A stretch of 64,000 bases of DNA from Trypanosoma brucei (lineage: Eukaryota): contig CP000070.1 of NCBI GenBank assembly GCA_000002445.1, positions 288,001 through 352,000 of the forward strand, given 5' to 3'. Positions 14,007 to 44,528 of this stretch are shown here, piece after piece. Numbering within the stretch: the first letter of the stretch is position 1; every line of letters begins with the position of its first letter. Under the pieces are notes generated by a model that was not told the origin of the DNA, made no database searches, and saw only the letters and a program-made list of their open reading frames with translations. A program made the position numbers and the translations under genes.

Positions 14007-17000
14007 TTGCCGCTTAGTTTTGTTTTCCCCATTGGGTATCGCACACTTCCAAGCACACAATTCGTCCTGCTGGCTCATCTTCAGGACGGCAGAGGGCCAT
14101 CGGCTCCGATGCGTCCATTAGTTGAGCGTTTTCTAAGGGGGGACAACAGTGTCCTATCGCAGATCCTTATGCGGGTTGAATCTCAGGGCGATCCAACATT
14201 CGGAGATAGCAGCGAACGGCTCTACAACCGGCTTATAGAAATGCTTGTTCATGAGGGTCGACGGGCATCAGGATCCGCACGCGGAAGCCCCAGTAACAAA
14301 GAAAATTGTTTTGTAGCCATACGCGTATTCAATATTATCTTCGAGCGGGCTGGAGTTGACGCTCCGGTTCTGCGTCGATGTCTTACGGAGTCCGGATCAA
14401 ACAACGCTCGTATGATGAATTTAGATCACTACTTCTCTCAACAGGGGCACATGAATATGCATGTAGCTCGCTTTGCATTGACTTTGACCAAGATTTATCG
14501 CATTTCTGTTGAGACCCTTTTGACAGCCGCGCCAAACATTGTCCACGTGGAGAGGCTTGCAGGAAGTAGGGAAAACTCCAATGCACAATCATCAGCGAGC
14601 AGCCACGACGATAACGTTTCCCCAATGCGCGGCACGTTCAGTGCTGCACGGAGTAATTTAAGGGGGGAGGGACGTTCGGTTTCCAACCCTCGTGCTGGTC
14701 GCGGTGCAGACGGCGCTCGTGTGGAGTTGTTTCAAGCGGTAGGCAACAGTAACAGACATTGGCGAGAACTACCTGATGCACCATCTTTTGTTCCTTTCAG
14801 TGTGAACCCACTGTACAGCGAAAATGTAGGTGCCTCAAACCACACGTGGATGCCGCCCCAGTTTCCAACTCCAGTATTGCTATTCTCACGGCACTTCGGG
14901 GCGGGTTGTGAAGCCAAACTTCCAATAATGGGCGCCATTACAGCTCAACAAACCGGAGAGCAGTTAGATGCGGAGGATGCGATAGCATCACCCACTCCGG
15001 AAAGGGTGGGCGACGGTGGTGAAGCAGTGGAAGAAGTAGTTGCAGGTGAGAAACCACCGGACCTGCTGTTGTCACGCTACCTGGCGAAAGGTGCAGTGCT
15101 TACGTGGGGTAACATTGCCTCCGTCAAAACAGGAAAGAAGTTACAACTAGCAAGCCCATCGGATGGCGAAAGCCCCCCACAAGGCTCGTACACGTTGTCA
15201 CCCACAAGGTTGGCCATTCCGGTTCCTGTGGTTTCTTTCAGCTGCGGCGCGTATTCATGTTATTTTGTGACAATGGAGAGAAAAATTCTAAGCTGTGGCA
15301 ATGACGATTGGGGTCAGTTAGGAGCTGGGAAGTCGAAGGACTCTCAGCCCCCTGGTGCAGTCAAGGGTAGCGAAGGGAAGTACCGACTCTACCGTGTGCC
15401 GCTCCGCAGTGGTGATCAAATATGTAAGTTAGCGGCTGGTTCTGCCTTCGCTGTCGCCATTGGTTTACGGAGTAGGCGCATGTATCTCTGGGGTCAAAAT
15501 TCATTCGGACAGTGCCTTGTTCACGAAGGTATGACTGTGCGAACACCCGTACTAGTGGACATCCCAGGACAATACACAGAGGTTGTGGATGTGGCTTGCG
15601 GGGGCTTCTACGCCGCACTATCTTTTACATGCGGCAGCGTAGGAACATGGGGGCTCTCCACAATGCTGGCAACAAATGTTTCACCAGATCAGCTTCGAGA
15701 TGCAGATGCACCGAACAACCAGAAGTGCGCTAAAACAATTAATTTGTTCAAACCACTAAACGAGAAGGTCGTTGCGCTTCGGGCGGGGCCGTGTCATTGT
15801 CTTGCGATAACGTCAAGTGGGGCCGTATATTCATGGGGTGTAGAGCGTAATGGGCGACTTGGGCACGGTAGTGGAAAAAATGAGGAGAAAATGCGCCTCA
15901 TTGACGCTCTAAGTAATCAAGTGGTTACGGATGCCAGCTGCGGCTCGTTTCACACAGCGGTTTTGACGAAGCAGGGACAAATTTTTGTCTTCGGTGAAAA
16001 TACATATGGTCAGTTGGGTCTCCCGACACGGCAACCACGTTTGCTACCGGAGATACTTCCGCTGCCCAAAAGGGCAATATCCGTTTCGTGTGGACGTGAG
16101 CACACTTGCATATTGTTAGAGGACGGCGACGTCATGGCATGTGGGAGCCTTCGATGCTCAGGTGTTGGCGTAGGTTTTGGTTCTCGCTTCGTGGCTCCGC
16201 GCCGAGCTGTACAAAACTATCTCATCCTAACTTTAGCTAGTGGTGATCTGCACGTGCTTGCAGCCGGGCTCCTACGCACTATGGCACTAACCGTAGTTCA
16301 AACTCCGCCGGAGTCACCAATACTTGACGACCTACCGAAAGTCAATGAAGTAGCTAGACGTCACGGTTTGCGCGGGGTTAGCGCCGGAAATGGGTTTACA
16401 ATAATTTTAGCGGAAACAGGTGAAGCCTTTTCTATTGGTCAGGGAGAAAATGGTCAGTTAGGGATGGGTGATACTTCGCTTTCACAAAAAACGGCACTTC
16501 GTAAAGTAGTTGTACCCGACTTTGAAGAGTTGTGTGCCGTGGAGTGTGGGTTTAACTTTGCCATTGCTATTGGCTCCTCCGGTGCCCTGTATAGTTGGGG
16601 CTGGAATACACATGGACAGCTCGGCCACGGTGTGGCCGTCAACTTAGGGGAAGCGGTCTTTACTCCTAAGGAGATTTCAGCGTTGAAGTCGCTTGCGCAA
16701 GTCGTTCAGGTTGCGTGTGGTGGTACTTTCGTAATTGCTCTTACTCAATGCGGGGAGGTGTATTCATGGGGAGAAACTCTGTACTGTGGTCATGGAACTG
16801 GAGGTGAGAGATGCCTAACAAACCCCAAGCGAATTGCGGCACTACAGGACATTGCGGCGGTTGCGGCAGGTGATAGGCATGCTGCTGCTGTTTCCTATGA
16901 CCATGTCATTTACGCGTGGGGTCGGGGTCCTGTTGGTGATGGTGGATCTCCATCCACTGTGGTGCCGGTTCCCGTAGCAGTGAAGTTTGCACACCCAGTG

Positions 17001-17567
17001 CGTCAACTTGTATGCTGCCAGGTGAATACGTTTATAATTACGGACGTTGGTGATCTTTATGTGTGGGGACTGAACAACAACGGACAATGTGGGGCGCTAC
17101 AGTCGATGATTAACAGTGATCATTCAACTTCTACTCTTCGTCAAAAAGGGGATGAGGATGGTGGGATGAAATCGGATCAGCAACCCCTACTGTTTCCCAC
17201 CTTTGTTGCGTCCGGGGTGCGTGAAGCCGCATTCACCAAAATGTGCGGAGTTTACGTTAAGGAGGACGGCAGCAGTTACGTTTGTGGTCGCGTGCGTCAA
17301 AATGGAAGGGATGTAACTCTCAAGTCCTTCACACAGCAGTGGGTCGGTCGCCCTCCCAGTGAGCGTGATGGTGAAACTGGGGCTGCCTCTCCCAGCAGTT
17401 ACTTCGTCCGTTGCTTCCATGGATACGACAGTATATTCCAACTAGTAGAGCGAAAGCGACAAACTCCTGCTTCGTTGAAAACCACTAGACAAAACTTGTC
17501 GGCGTTTGTTCGCGGCTCAAAGGAAAAAGCCTTTTACCAGCGCAACAACCAGAATAGAGAGAAGTAG
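14007..17567 (+). CDS. RCC1-repeat (regulator of chromosome condensation-like beta-propeller) protein, 1186 aa
   Basis: At least 7 RCC1 blades with the signature YxWGxNxxGQLGxG (WGQNSFGQCL, YSWGVERNGRLGHGSG, FGENTYGQLGL, YSWGWNTHGQLGHG, YSWGETLYCGHGTG, YVWGLNNNGQCG). A long non-repeat N-terminal region precedes them. An alternative start is at 14109. Confidence 0.8.
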   Translation: MPLSFVFPIGYRTLPSTQFVLLAHLQDGRGPSAPMRPLVERFLRGDNSVLSQILMRVESQGDPTFGDSSERLYNRLIEMLVHEGRRASGSARGSPSNKENCFVAIRVFNIIFERAGVDAPVLRRCLTESGSNNARMMNLDHYFSQQGHMNMHVARFALTLTKIYRISVETLLTAAPNIVHVERLAGSRENSNAQSSASSHDDNVSPMRGTFSAARSNLRGEGRSVSNPRAGRGADGARVELFQAVGNSNRHWRELPDAPSFVPFSVNPLYSENVGASNHTWMPPQFPTPVLLFSRHFGAGCEAKLPIMGAITAQQTGEQLDAEDAIASPTPERVGDGGEAVEEVVAGEKPPDLLLSRYLAKGAVLTWGNIASVKTGKKLQLASPSDGESPPQGSYTLSPTRLAIPVPVVSFSCGAYSCYFVTMERKILSCGNDDWGQLGAGKSKDSQPPGAVKGSEGKYRLYRVPLRSGDQICKLAAGSAFAVAIGLRSRRMYLWGQNSFGQCLVHEGMTVRTPVLVDIPGQYTEVVDVACGGFYAALSFTCGSVGTWGLSTMLATNVSPDQLRDADAPNNQKCAKTINLFKPLNEKVVALRAGPCHCLAITSSGAVYSWGVERNGRLGHGSGKNEEKMRLIDALSNQVVTDASCGSFHTAVLTKQGQIFVFGENTYGQLGLPTRQPRLLPEILPLPKRAISVSCGREHTCILLEDGDVMACGSLRCSGVGVGFGSRFVAPRRAVQNYLILTLASGDLHVLAAGLLRTMALTVVQTPPESPILDDLPKVNEVARRHGLRGVSAGNGFTIILAETGEAFSIGQGENGQLGMGDTSLSQKTALRKVVVPDFEELCAVECGFNFAIAIGSSGALYSWGWNTHGQLGHGVAVNLGEAVFTPKEISALKSLAQVVQVACGGTFVIALTQCGEVYSWGETLYCGHGTGGERCLTNPKRIAALQDIAAVAAGDRHAAAVSYDHVIYAWGRGPVGDGGSPSTVVPVPVAVKFAHPVRQLVCCQVNTFIITDVGDLYVWGLNNNGQCGALQSMINSDHSTSTLRQKGDEDGGMKSDQQPLLFPTFVASGVREAAFTKMCGVYVKEDGSSYVCGRVRQNGRDVTLKSFTQQWVGRPPSERDGETGAASPSSYFVRCFHGYDSIFQLVERKRQTPASLKTTRQNLSAFVRGSKEKAFYQRNNQNREK

Positions 17568-18950: not shown

Positions 18951-20273
18951 ATGTCTGTCACTTGCTGCGCCTATAGGAGGATACTGAAGCACTTGCAAAG
19001 AAGCGCAGTCAGATATGGGAAACAGGAGGAAATTTGTTTCGCTGTGTTTGGGCGCGCACTGAATATGAATGATTTTGCTGCCGCTGGGTATGGCGAAACA
19101 GCTCAGCAGGTAGCTCGGTCCATGTTCTCCCGGCCCAGCATCTCCGGTATCTCGTGCGATGAACCCGCACAACGGCTTGTTGGCGCATTTGACATGTTGC
19201 GGCGTTTTGCCGAGGTTACCACTGCCACAGGTAGTTCCAAGGTCGAACGAAGTATGGATGAGACTGAGCGTTCGCAGAATGAACCGAAGGAGCCAAAGGG
19301 AAGTGGGACGACGACATCTTCGGGGATTAGGAGGGCTGTTGTGATGGATTCCGTGAAGGTAGTTGGTGAAACAAGCAAGCCCGTGTCACCTGGGGTGGAA
19401 GAGGATCAAGCAAATGGTGGTAAAGGGTGCGAAAACGGCATCGAAGATGATGAGGACCAAGTGACTGACGGCTTTCATGTCGGGGAAGGGTCGGTGTACA
19501 TTGAGAGTTCTGTAAGTCAAAAGGTGCGAAAAATATCGCGACGCGTACTTGTATGCTTGGATTTGTTTAAGATACCCCCATATCGGCACATGATGCCCCC
19601 AGAACCACTCTATCCAACGAACATACGTGTGAGGTTTAAGTTCCCATTGATGAGGGATGCGATGCTTTGCATGGCGGCGTCCGTGGGCAAAGGCAACATC
19701 AATGGAACCCTTGAGCGCAAGAGGATACTCAACGAGGAAGATTACGGCGTGGTGTGTAACGTTATCCCCACGAGGACGATCACGGTAACCGATCATCTTG
19801 AGGTGGAACTGCGCACAGAGTACGTCCTTTCGAGAACTTACAACAGTGCGGAGGACGATGACGAACACATGAAGGTTCACCCTGTAGAAGGGGATTGTGA
19901 ATCCATCGTTTCCGGTGACGACAGCGGTACGAACATCCAGCATATATTTCGCTACTTTGTATTTATCCGGAACTATGGACCAGAGAAAAACGAGAAGAAA
20001 TGGCACGCTCAACTGCTTTCTCGACACCTGGTTATTTTTGACGAGGAGAAGGAAGCTGTTACGGAGGTGATTGGCCCCGGTTTAGCGGGGAATGTGCCTC
20101 TCTTGCCACCAGGAGGGTCGCACTTCTACGAAAGCGGCTTGTCTCTGTACGGGACGTCAGGTGTAATGCGGGGGACTTTCCAGATCAACACATATAACGA
20201 AAGCGGTGAGTCCCGCTGCATCGATATACACATTGCCCCGACACGTTTGGCTCCAAAAGAGGGATCGAAATGA
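18951..20273 (+). CDS. hypothetical protein, 440 aa
   Basis: Long + strand ORF between the two RCC1 genes. The antisense 213-aa ORF inside it is treated as a shadow. Confidence 0.5.
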   Translation: MSVTCCAYRRILKHLQRSAVRYGKQEEICFAVFGRALNMNDFAAAGYGETAQQVARSMFSRPSISGISCDEPAQRLVGAFDMLRRFAEVTTATGSSKVERSMDETERSQNEPKEPKGSGTTTSSGIRRAVVMDSVKVVGETSKPVSPGVEEDQANGGKGCENGIEDDEDQVTDGFHVGEGSVYIESSVSQKVRKISRRVLVCLDLFKIPPYRHMMPPEPLYPTNIRVRFKFPLMRDAMLCMAASVGKGNINGTLERKRILNEEDYGVVCNVIPTRTITVTDHLEVELRTEYVLSRTYNSAEDDDEHMKVHPVEGDCESIVSGDDSGTNIQHIFRYFVFIRNYGPEKNEKKWHAQLLSRHLVIFDEEKEAVTEVIGPGLAGNVPLLPPGGSHFYESGLSLYGTSGVMRGTFQINTYNESGESRCIDIHIAPTRLAPKEGSK

Positions 20274-21053: not shown

Positions 21054-23609
21054 GTGCTACACCGTAAACAGAAGGCAAACACTGAAATGCACGAACCTCG
21101 TGAAGTAGTTCCTCTGGAGCGCGCTTTCCTGGACGTTCCCGACGTCTCGGAGGACGTACATTGGCTTTTGCGCCGGTTCGTCAACGAAGACGGTGTCGTC
21201 CTGGGTTGGGGCCTTTGTCGCAACGGTGAACTGGGGACGGGTACTCGGAACAACGTCATTACGCCGTTTATCATTGGTGGTTTGGATAAACCGATTCGCA
21301 TAGGATGCTCCTCCATGACCTCCGTGTGGCTAGGCGTCCGCGGTGCTGTCCTTACAATGGGTGGTGGCATGTGGGGTGAACTTGGCGTTCCGGACCCACA
21401 GGTGATGCCACTTCTCTCCTGCACTGAACATGGCGTGCCTATTTCAACCGCACAAATTGATCTCCGGCAATTCAATTGGAATGAGATGATTGTGGACGTC
21501 AAGGGAGGGCATGCATTTTTTGCTGCACTTTCTAGCAAAGGGGAGGTGTTATTGTGGGGGGCAAACGATTACGCCCAATGTACTCCTGAGGTAAGGGGAG
21601 CGTGCTGTGCAACACCACGCAAACGCCGTGTGGCGGCTGAGAGAATTGTGGAGGTTGCTTGCGGCAACTATACCGTTTTGGCCCTCTCAGAGCGTGGTGA
21701 AGTATACGGCTGGGGCTACACCCTTCTCCTTGGCGAGGAGGAATCGACGTGGAAGACGTTGCCCCCGAATCATTTGAAAAGAGTGATTGTGGATGGCGAA
21801 GAGAGGGGTACCGTCGTGCAACCTGTTAAAATTCGTTCGTTGAGTTCCAAGTCGATAAGCCACATACGGATGGGACCGTGGCATGCCTTTGCGTTTAGCA
21901 GTGAAGGCCGTGCTTATAGCTGGGGTCTAGGGGAGGGTGGCCGACTGGGGCACGGTGACGAGGAAAACGTCAGCTTACCAAAGGAAGTCAAGGGGCTTAA
22001 ATCAGCTGTGGTTGAGGTTGCGTGCGGCAGTTTCCACACATGTTTGGTAACCTCCAGCGGCCTCGCGTACGCCTGTGGAGATAACCAAGGCGGCCAATGC
22101 GGAGTCCCCGGTGAAGTCATAGTTACAACCTTTCGTCAACTCGACCTTCCACTACGCCATAAGGTGATATCGGCGTCGTGTGGGCGACACCATACGTTGC
22201 TGCTTTTAGAAACGGGAGAAGTCGTAGCATACGGAACGGGGTTGGGCGTTGGTGTAGGACTGGGGCACGGCTTGCGGATGATACGAGGTGTTCCCATCAT
22301 GGACAACTACATATCACTATGGCTGACAAGTGGGTCGTGCCACAACTTCTCCCTTAGCTTACCCAAGAACCTTTCCATGCTTATACTAGGGCTGCCACAC
22401 CGGGGGGTTCACAGTGCGATTTCAGTCATTGGGGTAAAGGAGGGACTCTTAACTGCTGCTTTGGGACAGGGCTTTTCCATCATATTGAATAGACGCGGCG
22501 TGTGTTATGCAATGGGAATGGGTGGATGGGGACAACTCGGCATTGACCTCAGTAAAGTGCGGGATTTCACTCACGATAGGGTGCCTGTTGTGCGGCATGC
22601 CACCAAAATAACCAGTCTTAGTTCCTCAGCGATCGTGCAAGTTAGCGCCGGGATTTGCTTCTCGGCGGCACTCAGCGATACCCAGCGTGTCTTTACGTGG
22701 GGAAGCAACGTGTACGGTCAGTGTGGACTCGGTGTTAGTCCTATAGAGAACCCACGCATTGCTGAACCTCAAGAAATTGGATGGCTTGCCGATAAGATGA
22801 TCGTCCAAGTGGCGTGTGGTTGTTTTTTTGCTCTGGCGCTGAGTGCAACTGGTTGCGTTTACAGCTGGGGCAACATTGAGTGTTGTGGCGTGGGCGACTT
22901 GCCGCTGCCACCGGAGATACCAGACAACCTTGTAATGGAGTCGTTAGGAAACGATAGCACTGCCAGTATCCTTATGCCAGTGGAAGTGCCAAGTCTTTCC
23001 AACATCGTAGCCGTGGCAGCTGGGGCTTGGCATGCAATGGCGTTGAACGCTGCGGGGGAAATTTACGCATGGGGCATTGGTGCTTGTGGACGACTTGGTT
23101 ACGGTGGAGAAGATGACCGCATCACTCCTGTGAAGGTGTTGCTTTCCGCTTTCGCTACAAAAATTGGATGCGGACCCTTTGGGAGTTACGCCATCACCGA
23201 TGAAGGCAAGCTGTATGTGTGGGGCGCCAATGGAAGGGCTCAGCTTTCTGCTACAGGAAGCCGCATTCTCCTTCCAACGCATGTGCTCGATGATGTGATG
23301 GAGGCCACATTGGGGAAGTATTTTGCCCTTGTCCTTACTCGCTCCCGTGAGTTCAGGTTTTCGGGCGTGATGGAGCACCAGAAGGGCGTGTACGTCAGCG
23401 AGTCGTTTAACGACCTGAGGAATATACCTCCAGAGTTATCCAGGGACAACCTGTCGATGGAAGGATGCCAAGGCGTACGAGTGTTTGCCGGGGTGGAGCA
23501 TGCAATTGTGCTCGTGGAAAAGGACCCACTACCACCAGCTGTGGTTACTGAGCTGCACTACACGTTGCGGGATCGGCCGGCGCAAATTATCAGGCGAAGT
23601 GCCCGTTAG
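21054..23609 (+). CDS. RCC1-repeat protein, 851 aa (paralogous in fold to 14007..17567, not a duplicate)
   Basis: Multiple RCC1 blades (WGLCRNGELGTG, YGWGYTLLLGEE, YSWGLGEGGRLGHGD, FTWGSNVYGQCGLG, YSWGNIECCGVGD, YAWGIGACGRLGYGG, YVWGANGRAQL). A start at 21087 (MHEPREV) is also possible. Confidence 0.8.
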   Translation: MLHRKQKANTEMHEPREVVPLERAFLDVPDVSEDVHWLLRRFVNEDGVVLGWGLCRNGELGTGTRNNVITPFIIGGLDKPIRIGCSSMTSVWLGVRGAVLTMGGGMWGELGVPDPQVMPLLSCTEHGVPISTAQIDLRQFNWNEMIVDVKGGHAFFAALSSKGEVLLWGANDYAQCTPEVRGACCATPRKRRVAAERIVEVACGNYTVLALSERGEVYGWGYTLLLGEEESTWKTLPPNHLKRVIVDGEERGTVVQPVKIRSLSSKSISHIRMGPWHAFAFSSEGRAYSWGLGEGGRLGHGDEENVSLPKEVKGLKSAVVEVACGSFHTCLVTSSGLAYACGDNQGGQCGVPGEVIVTTFRQLDLPLRHKVISASCGRHHTLLLLETGEVVAYGTGLGVGVGLGHGLRMIRGVPIMDNYISLWLTSGSCHNFSLSLPKNLSMLILGLPHRGVHSAISVIGVKEGLLTAALGQGFSIILNRRGVCYAMGMGGWGQLGIDLSKVRDFTHDRVPVVRHATKITSLSSSAIVQVSAGICFSAALSDTQRVFTWGSNVYGQCGLGVSPIENPRIAEPQEIGWLADKMIVQVACGCFFALALSATGCVYSWGNIECCGVGDLPLPPEIPDNLVMESLGNDSTASILMPVEVPSLSNIVAVAAGAWHAMALNAAGEIYAWGIGACGRLGYGGEDDRITPVKVLLSAFATKIGCGPFGSYAITDEGKLYVWGANGRAQLSATGSRILLPTHVLDDVMEATLGKYFALVLTRSREFRFSGVMEHQKGVYVSESFNDLRNIPPELSRDNLSMEGCQGVRVFAGVEHAIVLVEKDPLPPAVVTELHYTLRDRPAQIIRRSAR

Positions 23610-24376: not shown

Positions 24377-25888
24377 TTTATTCGTATATCTACGCTTTAT
24401 TTGTTTAGTTAGTTGCCTTTTCCTTATTGTTACAAGTTATACTGTTGATATTGTTGATATTTTTCATCTACTCGCACATCTCACTTTGCCCTGCAACGCA
24501 ACAGGCTTATCGCATTACCGTATCGCAGAATACCGTTCTTCAACCATCGAAGCCACATTTACTCGAAAAATATCGTGCCTGTCATTTACCTATTTATTTA
24601 TTCATTTTCCTTCTTAATGATTACTGGTTCCTTCATCTTAAACCATTACAAGGGGAGCCATCGCTGGTATATGTATTGCTTCACTGTGTCTACTTATGTA
24701 TGTATCAGCGTAAAGAAGAATATTGAATACGCTCCGTCACTTTCCGCCTTGCCTTTTTTTCTTTAGTTTCAGGAATTTTTACAGTTCTGTAAGCATCCGA
24801 CGAGCCGTCTTGTATTTCTGTGCAAATGGTCGTGTGGATGCTGTAGAGAGAAATGCGTTGAGTTGTTGTATGTAGTGAAATAGAGGTGACGGGTATGAAC
24901 TTCTTCTACAAAGAAAAATCGCAGAAGGAAAGCACGCACTTAATGACTAGCATCCATTGTAAGCGCCACTGTCACGCCGTATGAGTGCACTTTATCAGTT
25001 CTAATTTCTTAATTCATTATTTTTTGCGCTGGTACTCTTAAGGGTGTAACACGATGTGCTTGTTTGCGTGTTGAGGACGGCGTGTAGGGAGTTTTAGCAT
25101 AAAACAAAAAAGGCGACAGGCACCAACCTGGGTCATGATCATTCTCTTCACCTATTTTTTTCCCCTTCATTATTGTTATTTTTCCTGCGCTATATCGTTT
25201 GCGAACTGCGGCAAATAGATGAGTAAATAAATATTTAGAAACGTAAAAGGTAGTGACTGTACAAGAACTCAAGTAAACAAAGTACGGTTTCCTCTGTGTG
25301 TTTGCGCGAAAACTGTTTTTGAAGAAGAATGAGCGGTGCCAGAAACTTATTACTTTCTCTCCGTCTGCGCTTGCAGTTTGTGTGTATATATCTTTCCTGC
25401 CTTTTCCTGTTCTGTTTTGCTCCCTCTTAATTCCTTCCGGCCATTACCGGGATAGTGTCTTTGAGTAGTTGTTGCCTGACCTGCAAGCACTCCTGTGGTC
25501 CACTGAGAGTGTTATTATCATTATTGCAGGCTTTCCCCTGCTGCTGTCAAATAACAGGGTCACACAAAAAGGGAAAGAAAGAGAAGGGGAGAGGAGGGAA
25601 GTTAGTGAAGGTTAAGGGACAAAACAGACATAGTGTGAGGAAGTAGCGGATTGCTGTCATATATATATATATATATTTCCCCAAATACTAATCGTAGTAA
25701 GTCAAGGAGAGCACAAGAAGAAATAATAACGAGCGCAAACTCGTTCCCTTATATACAAGTTATTGTTTCCCTGCGGCAGTAAACTACCCGGTTGTTCATA
25801 TTAGCGGGAAGGAAAGGTGGTACGGGAGAGGGGCAGAAGAGGGTTAGTGAATTTTTTTTTGTTTTTCGAACCCCCTCCCCCAAAATCC

Positions 25889-28800
25889 ATGGAGCATCAA
25901 AACGACCGCTGCACTTATTCCGTTCGCCCGCACGGGAAGTTGCAAGAATACTTGCTGGAACTCGAGAGTAAACTCCGGAATACCGCCGCACTGCTCCGTG
26001 AGTTCGGCACAACACCTAAGGGGAGCGATGCGGAGGGCTCTCCTGCCAATTGCACCACCTCTGCAGCGCAATCGGTGGGTGCGTACATCGAGGAACTACA
26101 GGGAGAAGTTGAGGCGTATGATGAACTTATCAACGAGCGACTAAAACAAATACGCCACCAGGCGGATGCAGCCTCGCAGGTGCACGTGGCATATCAAAAG
26201 ATGTTTCCGGACCATTCTCTCAAACCGAATACGATTAGCCCTGCAGAGAGGAAGCCATCAGCTAGTAGAGGTGTCTGTTACGACGGTGTTCGTCGATACC
26301 TTTCTCACTTTATAAACTGGGATCCATTGGAATTTGCTCGTGTCCCGGGTGGTGAAGACGAGGCTAATTGGGATCCACGAACGTCTCCCGCGCCTAGAAA
26401 CAGCGCTTCATTGTATCCGACCGAGGGAATTAAGGGGGATGGCGGTGATCGGAACTGTGGGCCATGGTCGCATGCTCATTCGACGCCTAACCACCAGTCG
26501 CAGTGGTCGGGAGCTCCGTGCGGCCCACGCGGATCGGGTCAGCAGTGCGGTAGACGAGGGATAAAATCTGTAGTGGATGATTTGGTGGTTCGGCAGCTTC
26601 AGTATGACGGCGTCCCGCTAACAACGACGATGGAGATGGATCTGGGATGCTATAATGGATTGGCGGCTGCATGTGAAAAGAATCCCACGAGGAGCAGCCA
26701 TCCAGTAAGCGTGGCGGTGCCGCAGGAGATCCGTTGCGGAGTCCTGCGACCGTGTTCACTTCGGGAGGAAAGCGTGGACATACTGCAAATGGTAACGGAC
26801 GCCTACCCGCGTACCGTTCAGTGGATTGTTAATATCGTTAATCTTTGCATCTCCTCCGCAGATATTCCGAGGACGGTCATGACGACTGCTGAAGGATTGG
26901 CACTGCTACTAGAGGCAGATGCTAATGGAGCCATACCGCACACGCAGCAAACGAGGGAGAGTGAGAGCCAATCGAGCAAGGTGTTTTTCCCAGCGGTTTC
27001 TGCACCAGAAGCGGAACCGACGCCGGATCGTGACATGCGCGAGACTCAGGAAACACCGGAACTCGGCGATGTTGTGCGGCTTCACAGAAGTGCTGCCTTC
27101 TTGTGGTCCTCGCAATTGAATGAGGAAGTCGAAGACGGAGAGGATGATGAACTCGCGGAAGCCACCAGTAGAGATGCCGGTACCGATATGGCTCCAGACG
27201 AGGAGCAAGATTATCTCGAGGAACACGAATATTATGTAGGCATGGAAGATCTTATACATGCAGATGTGGAAGCCGATGAGGTGGAGGAAGACGAGGACGA
27301 CGATGGAGATGGAGATGACGGCCGGATATTTGTGAATGACAGCGCAGGAGAGGAAGAAGACGAGGTGGATGAGGATATGCTTGAGGAAGGGGAAGATGTC
27401 GGCGAAGAGGAGACTGAAGACGACTACAGATACTTGCAACAGCAGCGAAACGCAGAGGAAGGTGACGTTGGCGGAGGAATCCGGGGTCGAGGGGAGGGAG
27501 GAGAGAAACAAGGAGAGCCAACTGCGTCCACGGAACAGAATGAAGTCCAACTCGTCGCTTTCGTGATGCAGCGACTGAAGGTATTCCTGTCAGACCTCGT
27601 GATTATTACGGCACTGCAACAGCTGGCGCTGATGGTTTCGGCGGCTCGGGCTACAATGTCAGACATGACGATTAACGGGGGCGAAGACGGTGACACAACT
27701 TCGTTGACACTGCAGCGAGCCGCTGAGTTCGCCTTAGCGTTATGTCGTCATCCGTCCGTGGCATGGCGGCTTGCAGTCGAGAACGGGTTTCATCAGTCTC
27801 ACACGCTGGGTGATGGTGATCCTCAGGTCAGTGGTGATGCTGCGCGGCCGTCCGCACTGCTGCTTTCTTTCCGTCACATTCTCGTGGCACTTGGGTACAT
27901 GCCGTTAGCCCTGGGAAATGAGCACAGACGTGCCTGTGAGGAGTCACAAGTGAATGGGAACTCACATGGTGGGAAACAGGCACAGGAACGCCTGCTGTGG
28001 TGTGTGGCGCCCTTTCTGCGCTTGTGGGGTGACAACCAGCGATCGTACTCTGGTGTTGGCGTTCCAACAGATCCCATGTATGGTTTCGTCGAGGATAGTC
28101 GTGGTACTGGTGGGGCCGCGGTAGCCGTTCCGATATGCACGACGCCGTTAGTGTGGCAAGAAAGCGTTCTCATGAGCCTCCTTGATCAGGTAGGGAAATT
28201 GAAACAGCTTGAGGAGCTTCTTCAACAGGAAGGACATAATGTGAAGCAAGCGGCATCTTCCTTCAATACAACTCCCCAACCAGAGAGCCTGCTTTATCGC
28301 TTCATATATCCACTTAGTGCACCTGTGCTGCGTAATCTTGACGATTGCTGCGAAAGGGGTCTCATCACGACATTCGGAGGTAGTCCTTCGCAACGCACGA
28401 GTATGAGCGAGTCACCGCAAGGTACCCCTTTTCGCCTGCCGCCCCCACAGCAGCAACCAACGTCACCGGCCGCAGCTATCAGTACCCAGCGGCGCTCAAT
28501 AATCAGCGGGTTTCGCGGCATGTTGCAAGGCTGGACGGGCTCTCGAAACAACAATCGTCGCAACACCGATACCGATCCTGCTGTAACCAGTGGGGACGAC
28601 GCCCAATCCCAGGATCCCACTGCCTCTCCGAAGCCTTCAGCACCCCAGCATACCGTGATCTTGGAGCTTCCCCACGCCAGCACGATTTTGTTGCAGCAAG
28701 ACGAGCTACAACGACGCGCTACATCCGCGTTACTTTATCCCAAGGAAAATCTGAGCTTCCATTCGGCGAACCCCGTTAGGTTGCTAAACTCATTTGTTGT

Positions 28801-29113
28801 GTGGCAACCGATGTTCCAGAAAACCATGTGCTACTGCCCGATAACACGCAGACGTTGTATTGACGCGTGTGTGCACGGTATCACTCCCGAGCAATATAAG
28901 GAAGCGCCGACGTCCCTCACAACTGGGGCTGAGTCGGGGTTCAATCCCGCGCAGTTGTTAAACTGTGGTCACGTGATTTCATATCGCGCGATGATGGCAC
29001 TGGCAGAACGGCCGCAGCGACTGGTCAGAGGGTCATCAAACGGCGTGCGATGTCCGTATTGCACAATGGTGACTCCGTTGGAGCAGTCGCTGATGCTATC
29101 GTGTATTTACTAG
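25889..29113 (+). CDS. large acidic protein with C-terminal Gid/CTLH-type degenerate RING (RMD5/MAEA-like)
   Basis: Start chosen at MEHQNDRC after a T/C-rich tract (the ORF opens at 25817). Central D/E-rich block (about 27100-27450). C-terminus CPITRRRCIDA…NCGHVISYRAMMAL…VRCPYC matches, from memory, the RMND5A/MAEA RING pattern CPILRQQ…CGHVISRDAL…KCPYCP. Confidence 0.6.
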   Translation: MEHQNDRCTYSVRPHGKLQEYLLELESKLRNTAALLREFGTTPKGSDAEGSPANCTTSAAQSVGAYIEELQGEVEAYDELINERLKQIRHQADAASQVHVAYQKMFPDHSLKPNTISPAERKPSASRGVCYDGVRRYLSHFINWDPLEFARVPGGEDEANWDPRTSPAPRNSASLYPTEGIKGDGGDRNCGPWSHAHSTPNHQSQWSGAPCGPRGSGQQCGRRGIKSVVDDLVVRQLQYDGVPLTTTMEMDLGCYNGLAAACEKNPTRSSHPVSVAVPQEIRCGVLRPCSLREESVDILQMVTDAYPRTVQWIVNIVNLCISSADIPRTVMTTAEGLALLLEADANGAIPHTQQTRESESQSSKVFFPAVSAPEAEPTPDRDMRETQETPELGDVVRLHRSAAFLWSSQLNEEVEDGEDDELAEATSRDAGTDMAPDEEQDYLEEHEYYVGMEDLIHADVEADEVEEDEDDDGDGDDGRIFVNDSAGEEEDEVDEDMLEEGEDVGEEETEDDYRYLQQQRNAEEGDVGGGIRGRGEGGEKQGEPTASTEQNEVQLVAFVMQRLKVFLSDLVIITALQQLALMVSAARATMSDMTINGGEDGDTTSLTLQRAAEFALALCRHPSVAWRLAVENGFHQSHTLGDGDPQVSGDAARPSALLLSFRHILVALGYMPLALGNEHRRACEESQVNGNSHGGKQAQERLLWCVAPFLRLWGDNQRSYSGVGVPTDPMYGFVEDSRGTGGAAVAVPICTTPLVWQESVLMSLLDQVGKLKQLEELLQQEGHNVKQAASSFNTTPQPESLLYRFIYPLSAPVLRNLDDCCERGLITTFGGSPSQRTSMSESPQGTPFRLPPPQQQPTSPAAAISTQRRSIISGFRGMLQGWTGSRNNNRRNTDTDPAVTSGDDAQSQDPTASPKPSAPQHTVILELPHASTILLQQDELQRRATSALLYPKENLSFHSANPVRLLNSFVVWQPMFQKTMCYCPITRRRCIDACVHGITPEQYKEAPTSLTTGAESGFNPAQLLNCGHVISYRAMMALAERPQRLVRGSSNGVRCPYCTMVTPLEQSLMLSCIY

Positions 29114-35933: not shown

Positions 35934-37418
35934 CACAGTTGAGGTGTGTGTCTATGTGTGTGTGTGTGTGTGTTAGGTGCAGGTGCGGGTACATGACATA
36001 ACTATTTTTTCCACCTTTCACTGCCCCATCGCGCGAGCATCGCATCGATTATGTGAAGCTACCCTTTGTATTTAACTACGCCTGTACATCTTCATACATT
36101 TACCGTTTTTTTTGTTTGCCCTTGCGCGAGGTATCGTGTCACACGTGTTTCTGTAACGCCTGTAGAATTGTTACGTATGGGCATCACCCATGAGAAACCA
36201 TCGCATCTAGGCGTGTGCCATCTGCTTTACCTCCCCACAAGAAAAAAATAATTACATCAAAACGTGCACAAATACATAACAGCGAAAAGTGCATTGAGGA
36301 GGATTGCCTTTATCTTTTTCTTCTTGTATTGAAGGCATGAACTAAGTGGTAGAACATTTGGTTGCGATCGTACCCCTCCACCCATTCAGCAACCGTTCAT
36401 GCTATTTTTACCTTGTTATCTTTCGTGCACATTTACACGCCTTCCCTCGTATATAATTTCTCTTCGTTTTTCATCTAGTTCTGTTTCTTCTGTTTTATTT
36501 TTTTTTTTTGCCCCCCTTGCACCATTAGCCCGTTCTTCATCGCATGAAATTGAAAATTCATGCAGTGAAACGGATGGCACCACTGCGACGACAAACATTG
36601 CTGTTATAATTGTTGTTTGTCACTTCACGTTCGGCCTCATTTCACTTCTCTTTCTCTCTTTTAACTGGGCAGTTTTAAGTCGTTTTCATTGTTTTGGTTT
36701 GGTCCCCTCGCTTACACTTAAATGAAGATAAACAACGAATGCGACCATGCCGCCCAATATTGCTGTTTCCTCGATGGTTTGTCGCAGACACTTCGCTGCA
36801 CGGCCATAAAATTTTGCTCGCTTCTTTTTCTCTTTTTTTTTTTAAGTACTATTCGTCTCGTCCTTTGTTGGTATTATATTTGTTGAAGGAGGAGAGTTAT
36901 GTGAGGAGGCCCTCTCAACCACTCAGCAAATTTCGAGGAAAAGGAAAAGATGTAGCAATTGGGATGCTTTGTGGGAATCGTTGCGTCTCTCACTTTGTTT
37001 TTTATTTTTATTTACTACTCTTTTTTTTTTTTTGAGAAGGCGTGTATTTCGAAGGAGGATAAATAGAAGTGATGAATATTTCAAATATCTCCTTGTATGT
37101 ATATATATATATATGCGGTTTACTTTAATAGTTCCTTCACTTGCTGTCCCCTCCCCCCTCTCTCTCTCTTTCTCTCTATTCTTTCCGTTTATTTGTATTA
37201 ACTTTTTGTGTTTCCGTAGTCTTATGATTAGACGTGTGTTCAAATAAACACGCAAGTGGTAACGTTGCATTCTACAATATTTCTGCTTTTGTGCACCTTT
37301 TATGGTACAGGTGTTGCTGAAGGTGCATAATAGAAGTACGGCCCACCATCATCACCACGTACGGTTTTCGTGATTCTGCGACTGGTGTCAACAAAAGGGA
37401 AGGGTACTCGAGGAGGAA

Positions 37419-38405
37419 ATGCAACGCCGCTTGCAGTGTTGTTTAATGCGTGTAGCGCGCTTACATTCGGCAGCATTGATGCATAATACAAATGGTTGGC
37501 TTATGATATCTTGCAGAACCGTACACATTACAGAGAGTGAGGCACAGTCGTTGGTACATTTGTCTGAGGCGCTTTTTTCTGATGAGGCAAATGCTCTGGG
37601 AGTATGTCTACCCGATACCAGCCTTAACCTTGACGGAGAAAGTGGGGAAGGGGATTTATATACTGAGACACTCACAACAGAGAAGTATATGGATGTGCTC
37701 GTTAGTTCACCAACACAAATAGATACGAGGGGAAATGTTTCTGCTTCATCAACGGATCTGATGATGCCGCTTACGCAAGCGGTGCAAGAACTGAAGTTAT
37801 GTCAGCAAAGAGAAGATCAGCGAGCCATTTCTGCAGCGCTTTCAACAGCCATGTGTGCGTTGATGGGAAGTAGTTCATCTCCTTCCAGTGCTGCTGCAGC
37901 TGAGTTATTGTTAGCCGGTGCAGACTTGAAAGCAATCATTTCTGATGGTACTATTCGACATATGTGCATTGAGGATAAATGCATGAGTCGATGTGATTTT
38001 TCCACTTTGTCACTACTTTCTGTACAGGCAAATCGCGTGGATTTCTCGCGCAGTCTCTTTTATGCTGCTGCCTTCCATAATTGTGTGTTTAGGAACTGCT
38101 CTTTTGAGGGGTGTGTACTGAAGGAACTCCGATGTTTAGGAGATGTGTGTTTTGATGGATGCTCCTTTTGTTTTGCGAACATATCGTTACGTATACCTCA
38201 TGAGAAACCGAGGCGTATTTCGGTATCTTCGGCTGCCACAGAAGGCGTGGGAAGGTATTCTGCGGAACATGCTGTGATATTTAACCGCTGTGATTTTGAC
38301 CTCTGTGATTTTGATGGTTGTGATACCCTTCCTGCATCTTGCTTTACGAACTGCACCAATACTCACCTCGCCGCCAAATTTTCGTCATGTGTGAGAACAT
38401 CATAA
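37419..38405 (+). CDS. Cys-rich pentapeptide-repeat-like protein, copy 1 (328 aa)
   Basis: C-terminal half has 5-residue periodicity with a central F/L and Cys at i-2: VDFSR SLFYA AAFHN CVFRN CSFEG CVLKE … VIFNR CDFDL CDFDG CD. The N-terminus is basic and Cys-rich. Confidence 0.7.
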   Translation: MQRRLQCCLMRVARLHSAALMHNTNGWLMISCRTVHITESEAQSLVHLSEALFSDEANALGVCLPDTSLNLDGESGEGDLYTETLTTEKYMDVLVSSPTQIDTRGNVSASSTDLMMPLTQAVQELKLCQQREDQRAISAALSTAMCALMGSSSSPSSAAAAELLLAGADLKAIISDGTIRHMCIEDKCMSRCDFSTLSLLSVQANRVDFSRSLFYAAAFHNCVFRNCSFEGCVLKELRCLGDVCFDGCSFCFANISLRIPHEKPRRISVSSAATEGVGRYSAEHAVIFNRCDFDLCDFDGCDTLPASCFTNCTNTHLAAKFSSCVRTS

Positions 38406-39526
38406 CTGTTGAAACTGCAAGATGAATGACACGAAATAAAGAAGCTTTCGGCTACTATTGGGTTGCCTTGCGTCTGTTTATTTGTTTCATTACTTGAACG
38501 CTTATGTCTGAAGAAGTGAAGGATGGGGTGGAATGTTAAAATGCAGACTAAAACTTTCCCCACGCGCTTAAATGCATTCACCATCAAGTGGGATCTGAAG
38601 GAATACTTATCATCCCCTTCAATTATTGGTACTCATCCATCAATACATGCAACCCAATCAGGTATTTACTCTCTGCTCCAAACAACAAGAATCAGTTACG
38701 TGCGTCATTGGATTTACACGTCCTCTCCTTTTTTTTTTCGTTCGTTTTCAAAATATTCATTTGAATGTGTTTTGACATTCTTCTGTATCATCATTACACT
38801 TTATCTGCAGCGATGAGGTTTGGGAAAAGGGAAAATGTACGAATGGCCGTGCGACTTGCTTCTTTCAGTTCCTTTAACCTTATTGAGTTTCCTTCATTGC
38901 TGTGTCGTGCTGTACACAACACTTTGTGTGCTGGTTGGAATTATGTGGGGATGTTTTTTTTTTTTGCATTTCCCTCTCCACACAGTAAGCCCCTCATCAT
39001 CATTTTCACATTTCTCATCAATCAACATTATAAATACCTGCCCATTGGGTTGTCTGTTACGTGATATGCGTGTAAAATATTCTGGTTCCTTCCTTTCGCA
39101 TGTTTCTGTGGATACTCGAATGTACATATATTTTTTCCTAATCATTTTCCATGCTATTTCTTCCCTATCACTCTTATGGGAAAGTTTGTTTGTCCTGTAC
39201 TTACGAAACCAAGCGCAAGTACATTAGTGTCATACCAATCAGAAAGGTTCGCAGTATTATTCTTATTCTTATTGTGCCCGTGGTATATATATATATATTT
39301 ATATATATACGTACATATATACACCTTTCTATTATTCTAGGTTGGTGCCTTTTTAAAAGTCTTCCCATTAGTTTTTTTTGTGAACATATCCCTATTACTA
39401 GCACTGCCACTGTTACTGTTTGGCTCCTTCTTTGAGTGAGCGCCTGCATCCATTTAAGTGTATATTTATTATTTTTTCGGAAACCACAACCAATTGAACG
39501 ACTACTAAAAGCAAACCAAACAAAAG

Positions 39527-40228
39527 ATGATGGAAAGTATGAACCTTGAACAACCACCACGACTAAACGCCGACCCCTGGCGAGATATGGAGCCAAAGGT
39601 GGATGCAATGCTAGGCGATCTACTCATGATATCTGAGCGTTTCCGAAGGATCGTAAATCCGACAGTGTCTGATGCAGATGAATTAATTGAAGCCATCAAC
39701 TCTGTGGGTGGAGAAGTTGAGACGATGCGGGTCGCTTTAGACACTACGATTGAGCGGCCGGAACTCTTTTCTGTAGATGCGGAAGAATTGAAAAGACGCA
39801 CGGAGAAAACTCGCTCGTGGGAGCGCGATGTTGCGAAAGCCATCGAGTTGCGATCAAAGATATTATCAAACCGTGAAGGGCAAATACAGGATCCACTTGA
39901 GAGTAACGTAATGACACCAAATACATGGGTTGATTTGGACACAACTCATATTCATCCATCAGCTCAGTCGTCGCATATGCCAATGAATAGTTGTGAAGCG
40001 ACTACTGACACATCTGTTGGTGTTGTTGAGTCTCAAGCTCTTATGCCAGTTGGAATACCCATACGTGAGCAAACAGTGAAGGCATCCGAATACTCAACCG
40101 CAAGTGTCGAGGTGCATACAGTGGATGATGTGGATGATCCCAATAATGAGGGATCTCTACTAAAGTACGTATTGGTTATCCTCTTAGTATCATCCATTCT
40201 TGTAGCAATATCGTTGATTTTCTTCTGA
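39527..40228 (+). CDS. tail-anchored membrane protein, copy 1 (233 aa)
   Basis: Soluble helical/acidic body with a single C-terminal hydrophobic segment LVILLVSSILVAISLIFF as the last residues. No signal peptide. Confidence 0.65.
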   Translation: MMESMNLEQPPRLNADPWRDMEPKVDAMLGDLLMISERFRRIVNPTVSDADELIEAINSVGGEVETMRVALDTTIERPELFSVDAEELKRRTEKTRSWERDVAKAIELRSKILSNREGQIQDPLESNVMTPNTWVDLDTTHIHPSAQSSHMPMNSCEATTDTSVGVVESQALMPVGIPIREQTVKASEYSTASVEVHTVDDVDDPNNEGSLLKYVLVILLVSSILVAISLIFF

Positions 40229-41640
40229 TTTTTTGATACTGAACTTTATCTCCTCTAATTGTTTCTTTTTGCGTGACTATCCTTCATCCTATGTTAAACG
40301 AAAGTAGGAGCTTATGTTTACGTATGTAGGTGCGCATTTTCTTTGTGGAAATATGTATGCATGCGTGTGGTTTTCTTTTTCATTAAAGCCTGCGAGGTGA
40401 ATGATGGAGTTTTGCTTCATATTTTATACAGAGATTGCTTAATTTGTCTTTCAGTTTCTAACTGTTTTTACCTTTTATTTCATTTATCGTAATGAAAGCC
40501 TACACTGAGCACAAGATACAAACAAGCGGTGTAGGGGAATGCTGCAAGTAACATTTGTAGTTTAAAAGTTATAACTGCAACTGAAAAGTCTCCCAATGGG
40601 CGCAGAAAGGTTTACAAACTTTACAGCTCTAAGAGCTTTCGCAGAAGCATATGCGCAAACGATTTTGTCGCCCAATATTTGGTGCTGGTACGTTACATGT
40701 GAAAAGTTCAATGATATCTGAAGTAAGGGAAATGACATCCGTATTTCTCTCGGATGGGGGGGGGGGGAAAGAAGCTTGGTTTCACATGTTCGGGTTAATC
40801 CTTGATATCCTTCAGCGTAATAAGACATAAATTCATCCTCAGCTCTGTCGAACAGGCGCGAGCGAAGGTTTTGGAATGAATGTTGGGCTCTCACGTAATG
40901 CAACCCCAATCCTTTTCAACGTTGCAAAATGACTTAAGGACAACTGCTTTGATAAAGATGGGGTATACACGAAAACTCACTGTTGAAGCGGGAACACAGG
41001 CATTTGATTAAAAGATAGTTAAGAATGATGAAAGGCGACAACTATAAAATGCAGGAAAATATTATGTTAGCCGCGGGAGCAGGTTTAATGAAGGGCGATC
41101 GAGTAACATAAATGGAAAACAGCGGCGAGTACATGGACCACTTAAATAAATGACAAAAGTGCAGCACCTTGCGCAATTGAAAGAGATGCTTTGTGGGAAT
41201 CGTTGCGTCTCTCACTTTGTTTTTTATTTTTATTTACTACTCTTTTTTTTTTTTTGAGAAGGCGTGTATTTCGAAGGAGGATAAATAGAAGTGATGAATA
41301 TTTCAAATATCTCCTTGTATGTATATATATATATATGCGGTTTACTTTAATAGTTCCTTCACTTGCTGTCCCCTCCCCCCTCTCTCTCTCTTTCTCTCTA
41401 TTCTTTCCGTTTATTTGTATTAACTTTTTGTGTTTCCGTAGTCTTATGATTAGACGTGTGTTCAAATAAACACGCAAGTGGTAACGTTGCATTCTACAAT
41501 ATTTCTGCTTTTGTGCACCTTTTATGGTACAGGTGTTGCTGAAGGTGCATAATAGAAGTACGGCCCACCATCATCACCACGTACGGTTTTCGTGATTCTG
41601 CGACTGGTGTCAACAAAAGGGAAGGGTACTCGAGGAGGAA

Positions 41641-42627
41641 ATGCAACGCCGCTTGCAGTGTTGTTTAATGCGTGTAGCGCGCTTACATTCGGCAGCATTG
41701 ATGCATAATACAAATGGTTGGCTTATGATATCTTGCAGAACCGTACGCATTACAGAGAGTGAGGCACAGTCGTTGGTACATTTGTCTGAGGCGCTTTTTT
41801 CTGATGAGGCAAATGCTCTGGGAGTATGTCTACCCGATACCAGCCTTAACCTTGACGGAGAAAGTGGGGAAGGGGATTTATATACTGAGACACTCACAAC
41901 AGAGAAGTATATGGATGTGCTCGTTAGTTCACCAACACAAATAGATACGAGGGGAAATGTTTCTGCTTCATCAACGGATCTGATGATGCCGCTTACGCAA
42001 GCGGTGCAAGAACTGAAGTTATGTCAGCAAAGAGAAGATCAGCGAGCCATTTCTGCAGCGCTTTCAACAGCCATGTGTGCGTTGATGGGAAGTAGTTCAT
42101 CTCCTTCCAGTGCTGCTGCAGCTGAGTTATTGTTAGCCGGTGCAGACTTGAAAGCAATCATTTCTGATGGTACTATTCGACATATGTGCATTGAGGATAA
42201 ATGCATGAGTCGATGTGATTTTTCCACTTTGTCACTACTTTCTGTACAGGCAAATCGCGTGGATTTCTCGCGCAGTCTCTTTTATGCTGCTGCCTTCCAT
42301 AATTGTGTGTTTAGGAACTGCTCTTTTGAGGGGTGTGTACTGAAGGAACTCCGATGTTTAGGAGATGTGTGTTTTGATGGATGCTCCTTTTGTTTTGCGA
42401 ACATATCGTTACGTATACCTCATGAGAAACCGAGGCGTATTTCGGTATCTTCGGCTGCCACAGAAGGCGTGGGAAGGTATTCTGCGGAACATGCTGTGAT
42501 ATTTAACCGCTGTGATTTTGACCTCTGTGATTTTGATGGTTGTGATACCCTTCCTGCATCTTGCTTTACGAACTGCACCAATACTCACCTCGCCGCCAAA
42601 TTTTCGTCATGTGTGAGAACATCATAA
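41641..42627 (+). CDS. Cys-rich pentapeptide-repeat-like protein, copy 2 (328 aa; one aa difference from copy 1: H36R)
   Basis: Same as copy 1. Confidence 0.7.
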   Translation: MQRRLQCCLMRVARLHSAALMHNTNGWLMISCRTVRITESEAQSLVHLSEALFSDEANALGVCLPDTSLNLDGESGEGDLYTETLTTEKYMDVLVSSPTQIDTRGNVSASSTDLMMPLTQAVQELKLCQQREDQRAISAALSTAMCALMGSSSSPSSAAAAELLLAGADLKAIISDGTIRHMCIEDKCMSRCDFSTLSLLSVQANRVDFSRSLFYAAAFHNCVFRNCSFEGCVLKELRCLGDVCFDGCSFCFANISLRIPHEKPRRISVSSAATEGVGRYSAEHAVIFNRCDFDLCDFDGCDTLPASCFTNCTNTHLAAKFSSCVRTS

Positions 42628-44447: not shown

Positions 44448-44505
44448 TTTTTTGATACTGAACCTTATCCGCTCTAATTGTTTCTTTCTGTTCGCTTGTT
44501 GTTAC

Positions 44506-44528
44506 TATATATATATATATATATATAT
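44506..44528. repeat. (TA)11-12 microsatellite just 3' of duplication copy 2
   Basis: Direct read. Confidence 0.9.

Follow-up and report, generated by a model that had tools for sequence, protein, structure and literature searches.

The stretch of DNA considered here, termed the window, comprises 64,000 nucleotides from Trypanosoma brucei (assembly GCA_000002445.1, contig CP000070.1, positions 288,001 to 352,000 of the forward strand). On its plus strand, an open reading frame (ORF) runs from an ATG at 25889 to a stop codon at 29111-29113 and encodes a product of 1074 amino acids that, by exact look-up, is identical to XP_845746.1/AAZ12187.1/Q57WS8 from chromosome 7 of T. brucei brucei TREU927, annotated as “hypothetical protein, conserved”. 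The 1097 amino acids given for it in the original prediction, which was made from the sequence alone, were an overestimate; 1098 would be reached only by starting at an in-frame GTG at 25817. From gene order, the gene is probably Tb927.7.1220, because protein accessions in the region are consecutive and the sphingosine kinase encoded two genes downstream is Tb927.7.1240 (PMC4611037); a literature search for Tb927.7.1220 found no mention of it. The product is acidic overall (isoelectric point 4.75, 14.6% D+E), and the long D/E-rich block that had been described is indeed present, with 44% D/E between residues 408 and 540. Its C-terminal finger, the main subject here, reads CPITRRRC…NPAQLLNCGHVIS…CPYC, with CPITRRRCIDA at residue 983, NCGHVISYRAMMAL at 1025, and VRCPYCT at 1053, shortly before the end of the protein at 1074.

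A phmmer comparison of the full protein with 1.84 billion representative proteins returned 13 matches, all from kinetoplastids and all annotated as hypothetical, and found no relatives beyond the kinetoplastids. Family members range from 778 to 2081 amino acids and include proteins of T. congolense (G0UPH6, 47% identity over the full length), T. vivax (G0TXS1, 38% identity), T. grayi (DQ04_09921000, the gene model of which begins at the equivalent of M248), T. cruzi and T. cruzi marinkellei (1138 amino acids), Angomonas deanei (A0A7G2C7Q5, 778, the most compact), Leishmania mexicana (E9AY52, 2036), and Leptomonas seymouri (2081), with several further kinetoplastid assemblies also among the matches. 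Word-indexed homolog searches were dominated by the acidic tract and gave one match each time. The family alignment (10-11 sequences, 20-47% overall identity) consists of short conserved helical blocks with variable low-complexity linkers between them, in the order N-terminal helix pair; C…VK.YLS..V.W.P; R….VDDLVL.QLR.DGV.LT..ME..LG; QEVR.G…P.T..W; acidic or low-complexity tract; helical core; linker; LE.PHAS..L…D; and C-terminal finger. The CPI.R, CGH, and CPYC motifs are located where the original prediction had placed them, and C983, C990, D992, G997, N1019, C1026, G1027, H1028, C1055, P1056, Y1057, and C1058 show no or almost no variation among the kinetoplastid homologs.

Canonical RING domains follow the ligand pattern C1-x2-C2…C3-x-H4-x2-C5-x2-C6…C7-x2-C8. 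The pattern across 11 members of the family is CP(I/V)(T/S/V)…CGH(V/I)(I/V/L)(S/A)..(A/S/E/T)…CPYC, in which C1, C3, H4, C7, and C8 are kept throughout, and the C2 (T/S/V), C5 (S/A), and C6 (A/S/E/T) positions are never cysteine; in T. brucei, the last two are S1031 and A1034. RMND5A and Rmd5 keep only the same five ligands (CPIL…CGHIISRDA…CPYC), and the Gid2 RING holds a single zinc (PMC9180843). A single zinc site, formed by C1026, H1028, C1055, and C1058, is likewise predicted in Q57WS8. Just ahead of L.CGH, the family carries an NPP motif (NPA, NPP, or NTP), and the RING occupies the extreme C-terminus, all members ending exactly 16 residues past CPYC in Y or F (IY in T. brucei) and RMND5A ending 14 residues past it in FF. 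In RMND5A, I338/L339 form the binding site for the ubiquitin-conjugating enzyme (E2), R340 is the linchpin, and C354 is a zinc-binding cysteine (PMC9180843); hhalign pairs C983-P-I985-T986-R987 with C336-P-I338-L339-R340 and C1026 with C354, and both I/V at position 985 and R/K at the linchpin position 987 are conserved family-wide.

Similarity to RMD5 was also found at the profile level. A profile of the spliced family RING cores (A3) aligned with metazoan RMND5 RING sequences, which are exon-sized fragments, at hhalign 97.2% (E = 4e-11, 52 columns), and the family core aligned C-terminus to C-terminus with a three-sequence full-length reference, composed of human RMND5A (391/391 identical to PDB chain 8pjn_b) and the Rmd5 and MAEA segments, at 95.1% (E = 3.4e-8). 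The real score was 62, as opposed to 10.7±2.3 after column shuffling, and none of 40 shuffles reached it, so that the Gid-type alignment by profile search, on which the original prediction had staked its claim, was obtained. Against single proteins, the family RING aligned at 96.6% with RMND5A (52 columns, both halves), at 96.4% with yeast Rmd5 (45 columns), and at 9% with MAEA (43 columns). Of the RMD5/MAEA-type RING proposed at the outset, the RMD5/Gid2 half is supported, by the ligands, NPP motif, linchpin, and C-terminal position in addition to the profile alignments, and the MAEA half is not. By its sequence, the C-terminus of the Q57WS8 family is a RING, and the motifs support a finger of the catalytic RMD5/Gid2 type and not of the MAEA type, because the CGH and CPYC ligands that MAEA lacks are present in the family.

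When metagenomes were scanned with the family alignment, a single locus was recovered (L002; contig Ga0209665_1045493, positions 1-369), the 3′ end of a canonical RMD5 gene. It matches zf-RING_UBOX at E = 1.8e-7 and, ahead of the RING, aligns weakly and below threshold with the final 30 positions of the CTLH/CRA model (16.8 bits, E = 0.007; cut-off 26). It is 42% identical to the T. brucei finger over 52 residues (BLASTP E = 4e-9), and its NPPQLLPCGHVIS motif is near-identical to the kinetoplastid counterpart; no intermediate full-length sequences were recovered by the scan, and the locus serves as a bridge for the RING only. Past the stop codon, the contig continues in the same frame with what resembles a WD-repeat-type coding sequence.

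Cys1 and the NPP motif are 11 residues apart in human RMND5A, 34-36 in Trypanosoma (36 in T. brucei), 118-124 in Angomonas and one further kinetoplastid, and 176-269 in Leishmaniinae, which indicates that the first RING loop carries a lineage-specific insertion; the RING is thus split by a family-specific insert of ~25-260 residues. The insert opens with a conserved stretch (RRRC990.D992..V.G997), which belongs to a family-specific cluster, M-C-(Y/F)-C-P-V-T-R-R-R-C-x-D-x-x-V-x-G, at residues 981-997 (28829-28879). Because the insertion sits inside the finger, the native T. brucei sequence has no RING match in Pfam, and because it splits the RING, the whole-family profile has no significant match in the PDB. 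The Pfam families named in the original prediction, zf-RING_UBOX, CTLH, and CRA, are all unmatched by the native full protein, and only the first of them appears, below threshold, once the insert is removed.

GID/CTLH ligases are thought to go back to the last eukaryotic common ancestor, and a MAEA-like subunit alone is catalytically inert. In a 2013 eukaryote-wide survey, Rmnd5, MAEA, TWA1, and WDR26 were found in one excavate only, Naegleria, and no kinetoplastid was listed (PMC3797097). A MAEA-like protein, TcCLB.504253.20/Tb927.4.2890, has since been reported in trypanosomatids; it was recognized only by structure and a full-length family hidden Markov model (HMM), has no BLASTP matches, and carries none of the CTLH_C, CTLH/CRA, CRA, and ZF_RING_GID signatures (PMC12047770). 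The MAEA-like cluster is a gene separate from the one described here, as illustrated by T. grayi (DQ04_01261000 as opposed to DQ04_09921000), and its T. brucei member lies on chromosome 4, outside the window. Gid9/MAEA and Gid2/RMND5A are mutually dependent in yeast and human and dimerize through the RING/RING-L domains and an N-terminal coiled coil (PMC9180843). So far, only the MAEA-like subunit has been proposed for kinetoplastids, the catalytic subunit has not yet been reported, and a literature search for RMD5/Gid2 together with trypanosomatids found no paper. On its sequence features, Q57WS8 is the best candidate for this subunit in trypanosomes.

On balance, although with modest confidence, we favor the reading that Q57WS8 is the kinetoplastid ortholog of RMD5/Gid2, very diverged and expanded, and that it pairs with the MAEA-like Tb927.4.2890. 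Under this reading, the C-terminal domain would fold as a one-zinc RING, with the zinc on the four ligands predicted above, and would bind E2~ubiquitin via its CP(I/V)x(R/K) surface, I985 acting as an E2 contact and R987 as the linchpin. Heterodimerization with the RING-like, zinc-less domain of Tb927.4.2890 would stabilize the RING, a second dimer contact would be made through a coiled coil of the N-terminal helical hairpin, and the helical blocks between hairpin and RING would serve as a scaffold by which the dimer docks into a larger assembly. Both the acidic tract and the RING-loop insert would be disordered additions specific to the lineage. The modeled N-terminal helix pair is a candidate coiled coil for pairing with the partner subunit, as Gid2 and Gid9 pair via N-terminal coiled coils (PMC9180843).

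Several observations count against this orthology. The first concern the RING itself, the similarity of which to TRIM32 (hhalign 96.9%, 38 columns) is as strong as that to RMD5; hhalign scores alone therefore do not separate the finger from a canonical RING, and the Gid2 subtype call rests on the motifs. With the insert removed, the finger matches zf-RING_UBOX (PF13445) at 19.3 bits (E = 1.2e-3), below the gathering score of 25.2, and no Pfam RING model reaches its cut-off; zf-RING_UBOX is matched by 5 of the 11 family members (best E = 2.2e-4) and by the RMND5A control at 27.4 bits. Q57WS8 could instead be a RING-type ubiquitin ligase (E3) unrelated to GID/CTLH, for instance degenerate TRIM-like, SP-RING/NSE2-like, or Rtf2-like, with the likeness to RMD5 arising by convergent loss of one zinc site. 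In favor of this, TRIM32 is the top match (5e-4) of the A3 profile among 177,635 distinct PDB sequences, the only others being yeast RMD5 (1.9e-3), human RMND5A (0.054), and TRIM23 (1.7), and the spliced family fingers give weak Pfam matches to other one-zinc fingers, namely Rtf2 in 6 of the 11 members and zf-Nse in 2 (E≥0.069). However, the TRIM32 match covers the second half only, on residues common to RMD5, and TRIM32 has C2, C5, and C6, which the family lacks. Genuine RMND5A, for which TRIM32 is likewise the best non-CTLH RING match in the PDB, gives the same weak TRIM32, NSE2, Rtf2, and zf-Nse matches, and the environmental RMD5 sequence gives the same Rtf2 and zf-Nse matches, so that none of these weak matches has discriminating value and the latter two are typical of RMD5 fingers. 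The kinetoplastid profile has no NSE2 match at E≤10. What the family has in common specifically with RMD5 is the NPP motif, the exact CPYC, the linchpin setting CP(I/V)xR, and the tail. An origin outside GID/CTLH is therefore considered improbable.

Two further points on the RING, also to be set against the orthology, bear on its function. T986 stands where RMND5A has the hydrophobic L339 of its E2 site (T, S, or V in the family), and neither the invariant C990 nor C981, present in all members except that of Angomonas, has an RMD5 counterpart. Together with C983, these two cysteines could conceivably make up a metal site that substitutes for the lost RING site I. The substitution at T986, together with the long insertion in a loop that helps form the E2-binding surface, would suit a non-catalytic structural protein whose finger is an interaction or zinc module with no E2-dependent activity. 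Nevertheless, the zinc ligands, I/V at the E2 position, and R/K at the linchpin are conserved in all sampled lineages despite overall identities of 20-47%, which argues for selection on catalysis-related residues and makes a purely structural role very improbable.

The remaining points concern the body of the protein, in which the original prediction had seen no obvious LisH or CTLH, and none emerged from Pfam, hhalign, or PDB profile searches. Neither the whole T. brucei protein nor its N-terminal and central parts had any Pfam match, and Pfam LisH, CTLH, and CRA were absent from 10 of 10 full-length members and from the sub-alignments of residues 222-345 and 548-830 (E≤10); the RMND5A control matched the CTLH model (PF10607) at 7e-39. 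In hhalign against the matching part of RMND5A+Rmd5+MAEA, residues 222-345 scored 8.8 (9.3±1.7 for shuffled alignments) and residues 548-830 scored 13.0 (shuffled 10.9±2.1), and lowering the threshold merely lengthened the RING match, with no further information. Sub-profiles of the helical regions found no LisH or CTLH-complex protein in the PDB, and no LisH, CTLH, or CRA was found in fold searches with two AlphaFold2 (AF2) models of poor to moderate quality, one of the full length (mean predicted local distance difference test, pLDDT, 42; predicted template modeling score, pTM, 0.38) and one of residues 222-832 (pLDDT 54, helices 70-90; pTM 0.53). These negatives would be explained if a Gid2-type RING, descended or recruited from RMD5, were carried on a kinetoplastid-specific helical scaffold that replaces the LisH-CTLH-CRA body, the protein then acting as an E3 in a complex other than the CTLH ring, with or without the MAEA-like protein. 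We hold this to be possible but distinctly less probable than the orthology set out above. The negatives are real, but they are not strong, coming from a family alignment of 10-11 sequences, a three-sequence reference, and models of low to moderate confidence; moreover, the trypanosomatid MAEA also lacks CTLH/CRA/RING_GID signatures, although structure and a family HMM match it to MAEA along the full length. In addition, RMD5 has its elements in the same order as the AF2 models, with a long helical hairpin at the N-terminus, helical blocks next, and the RING last, at the extreme C-terminus. For large disordered inserts in CTLH-CRA modules, RanBP9/RanBP10 offer a precedent, with ~145 residues removed in the crystallization constructs (PMC13061415).

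Whether Q57WS8 is such an ortholog or a Gid2-type RING on a new scaffold, the gene is a candidate E3 ligase subunit, previously unannotated, conserved across kinetoplastids, and with a split RING. The sequences establish the gene with its conservation, the homology of the RING, and the Gid2-type pattern of residues; a partner, a complex, an E2, and ligase activity are what we infer for it. Annotated as “hypothetical, conserved” and missed by all domain databases tested, it would be absent from parasite E3 ligase catalogs. With a candidate named for the catalytic RING subunit that is missing, whether trypanosomes and Leishmania possess a working GID/CTLH-type ligase, and which substrates it degrades, becomes testable. 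With its split RING and a LisH-CTLH-CRA body that is apparently lost or else extremely diverged, the protein is also informative on the extent to which the scaffold may drift around a preserved catalytic module. More tentatively, kinetoplastids may have kept only the Gid2-type RING, and perhaps the MAEA partner, and rebuilt the rest, giving a ligase with a GID RING heterodimer and no LisH-CTLH-CRA ring scaffold, in which the RING would tolerate or use a 25-260-residue insert and C981/C983/C990 in its E2-facing loop.

Table 1. Elements of the Q57WS8 gene and product, with nucleotide positions numbered from the first base of the window.
Element	Residues	Position	Strand	Basis and conserved features
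Whole gene	1-1074	25889..29113	+	1074 codons and stop; ORF, exact protein match
N-terminal long-helix pair	15-40 and 57-105	25931..26203	+	AF2 pLDDT 63-74; conserved L..LE..FR…CD..I…L..LR
Helix-turn-helix block	222-253	26552..26647	+	R..(V)VDDLVLRQLRYDGVPLT..ME..LG; D230, L237, D240, G241, L244, M248 (nearly) invariant; LisH-like by eye only
Helical block	272-345	26702..26923	+	QEVR.G, P307…W312; R282, P307, W312 invariant; pLDDT 67-89 in both AF2 models
Acidic low-complexity insertion	~400-540	27086..27508	+	Composition; pLDDT <50; poor alignment; predicted disordered; length and sequence vary between species
Conserved helical core	546-830	27524..28378	+	LL.DL..L..LQ.L, LLLS.RH…ALGY.PL, VAPFL.LW, VW.ESV..LL.Q..KL, YP.S…L..LD…GLL
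Low-complexity, poorly conserved linker	831-920	28379..28648	+	pLDDT <35; alignment
Strand-helix block ahead of RING	921-945	28649..28723	+	(I/L)xLE(L)PHAS.(I)L…D; P928, H929, L934, D938 conserved; AF2 strand 922-926, helix 930-944
RING first half	972-999	28802..28885	+	W.P.FQ.TMCYCP(I/V)TRRRC.D..V.G; C983 = Cys 1, I985 E2-contact position, R987 linchpin position
Variable core of RING-loop insert	1000-1015	28886..28933	+	Cys1-to-NPP distances
RING second half and tail	1016-1074	28934..29110	+	NPAQLL.C1026-G-H1028-VIS…C1055-P-Y-C1058 and 16 residues ending IY

The acidic tract differs between strains around residues 455-470 (27240-27300), where TREU927 has DGDGDD and a 99%-identical variant of 1076 amino acids (P0001) has DGDGDGDD; the T. 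b. gambiense protein (P0020) likewise has 1076 amino acids. This in-frame indel of a two-codon GD repeat is consistent with an unconstrained disordered spacer. On the minus strand, a 213-amino-acid antisense ORF (26909-27550) was rejected as a gene; it lies wholly within the GA-rich acidic part, its translation is low-complexity and F/L/S-rich, and codon composition in the acidic tract is its likeliest source. At the other end of the product, the N-terminus (ME…) is kept in T. congolense and T. vivax. Upstream of the gene lie an (AT)8 microsatellite (25660-25676) and a T/C-rich tract (25846-25880) that immediately precedes the ATG, without an intervening AG. A more plausible trans-splice acceptor is offered by another polypyrimidine tract, ~100 nt upstream (~25770-25795), which does have an AG after it.

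The neighboring genes encode two RCC1-like proteins, an ApaG-domain protein, an 840-amino-acid protein, a sphingosine kinase (DAG-kinase-like), EMC7, and a protein disulfide isomerase; as would be expected in the polycistronic units of trypanosomes, they shed no light on function. Directly upstream, the two RCC1-repeat (RLD) proteins, of 1186 and 851 amino acids, flank the ApaG/DUF525-domain protein (14007-17567, 18951-20273, and 21054-23609). A tandem duplication occupies 36963-45400, with a unit of ~4.22 kb and copies 99-100% identical, each containing a 328-amino-acid ORF with a weak pentapeptide-repeat match (37419-38405; 41641-42627) and a 233-amino-acid ORF with no family match (39527-40228; 43746-44447). 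Further genes in the window encode an AsnA-type aspartate-ammonia ligase (12-1067), a CFAP61-like flagellar protein with a pyridine-nucleotide-disulfide oxidoreductase region (48723-52766), and a PPR-repeat protein (56449-57534).

Among known zinc fingers, the NSE2/Mms21 SP-RING and the Rtf2 finger resemble the family in having a single zinc site and a CP(I/L)(T/S)-type start. The spacing between C7 and C8 is longer in NSE2 than in the CPYC of the family. An SP-RING was rejected as the class of the finger, the family profile having no NSE2 match in the PDB at the threshold given above and RMND5A itself matching NSE2 at 0.05. TRIM32 shares the LL.CGH.I…NGVRCP(F/Y)C stretch, a likeness that does not extend beyond the finger's second half, but it differs in having all eight ligands (CPIC…CGHTICRQC…CPFC), an N-terminal RING, no NPP motif, and no match to the linchpin context; a canonical TRIM-type RING was rejected because three ligands are missing from the family (CP(I/V)T instead of CPxC; CGHVIS..A instead of CGHxxCxxC).

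MAEA/Gid9 and the family have the NPP motif and a general subunit logic in common, and the trypanosomatid MAEA, like the Q57WS8 family, is invisible to standard CTLH/CRA/RING_GID profiles. Unlike the family, MAEA/Gid9 has PNGY in place of CGH and no CPYC, and a MAEA-type RING-like domain was rejected on the presence of the CGH and CPYC zinc ligands and the 9% hhalign value; the expected relation of the family to the MAEA-like protein is that of partner and not of paralog identity. RMD5/Gid2 (RMND5A/B, Rmd5) differs from the family mainly in what surrounds the finger: RMD5 proteins have ~390-420 amino acids, whereas the T. brucei protein has 1074 and those of Leishmaniinae have up to 2081, and the T. 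brucei protein, unlike RMD5, has a 130-amino-acid acidic tract and no detectable LisH/CTLH/CRA. Within the finger, the family, unlike RMD5, has a 25-260-amino-acid insert between Cys1 and NPP and the extra conserved C981/C990, D992, and G997; the spacing from H to CPYC is 27-37 residues in the family and 18 in RMD5, and the second E2-contact position is T in T. brucei and L in RMD5. Both nevertheless possess a long N-terminal helical hairpin, which in the family is predicted by the AF2 model, with no demonstrated sequence similarity to RMND5A, and a RING at the extreme C-terminus, predicted in the family to be of the one-zinc type, in which C1 is kept, C2, C5, and C6 are lost, and C3-H4-C7-C8 are kept, and both share the CP(I/V)x(R/K) segment, the NPP motif, CGH(V/I)IS, CPYC, and a short tail with an aromatic end.

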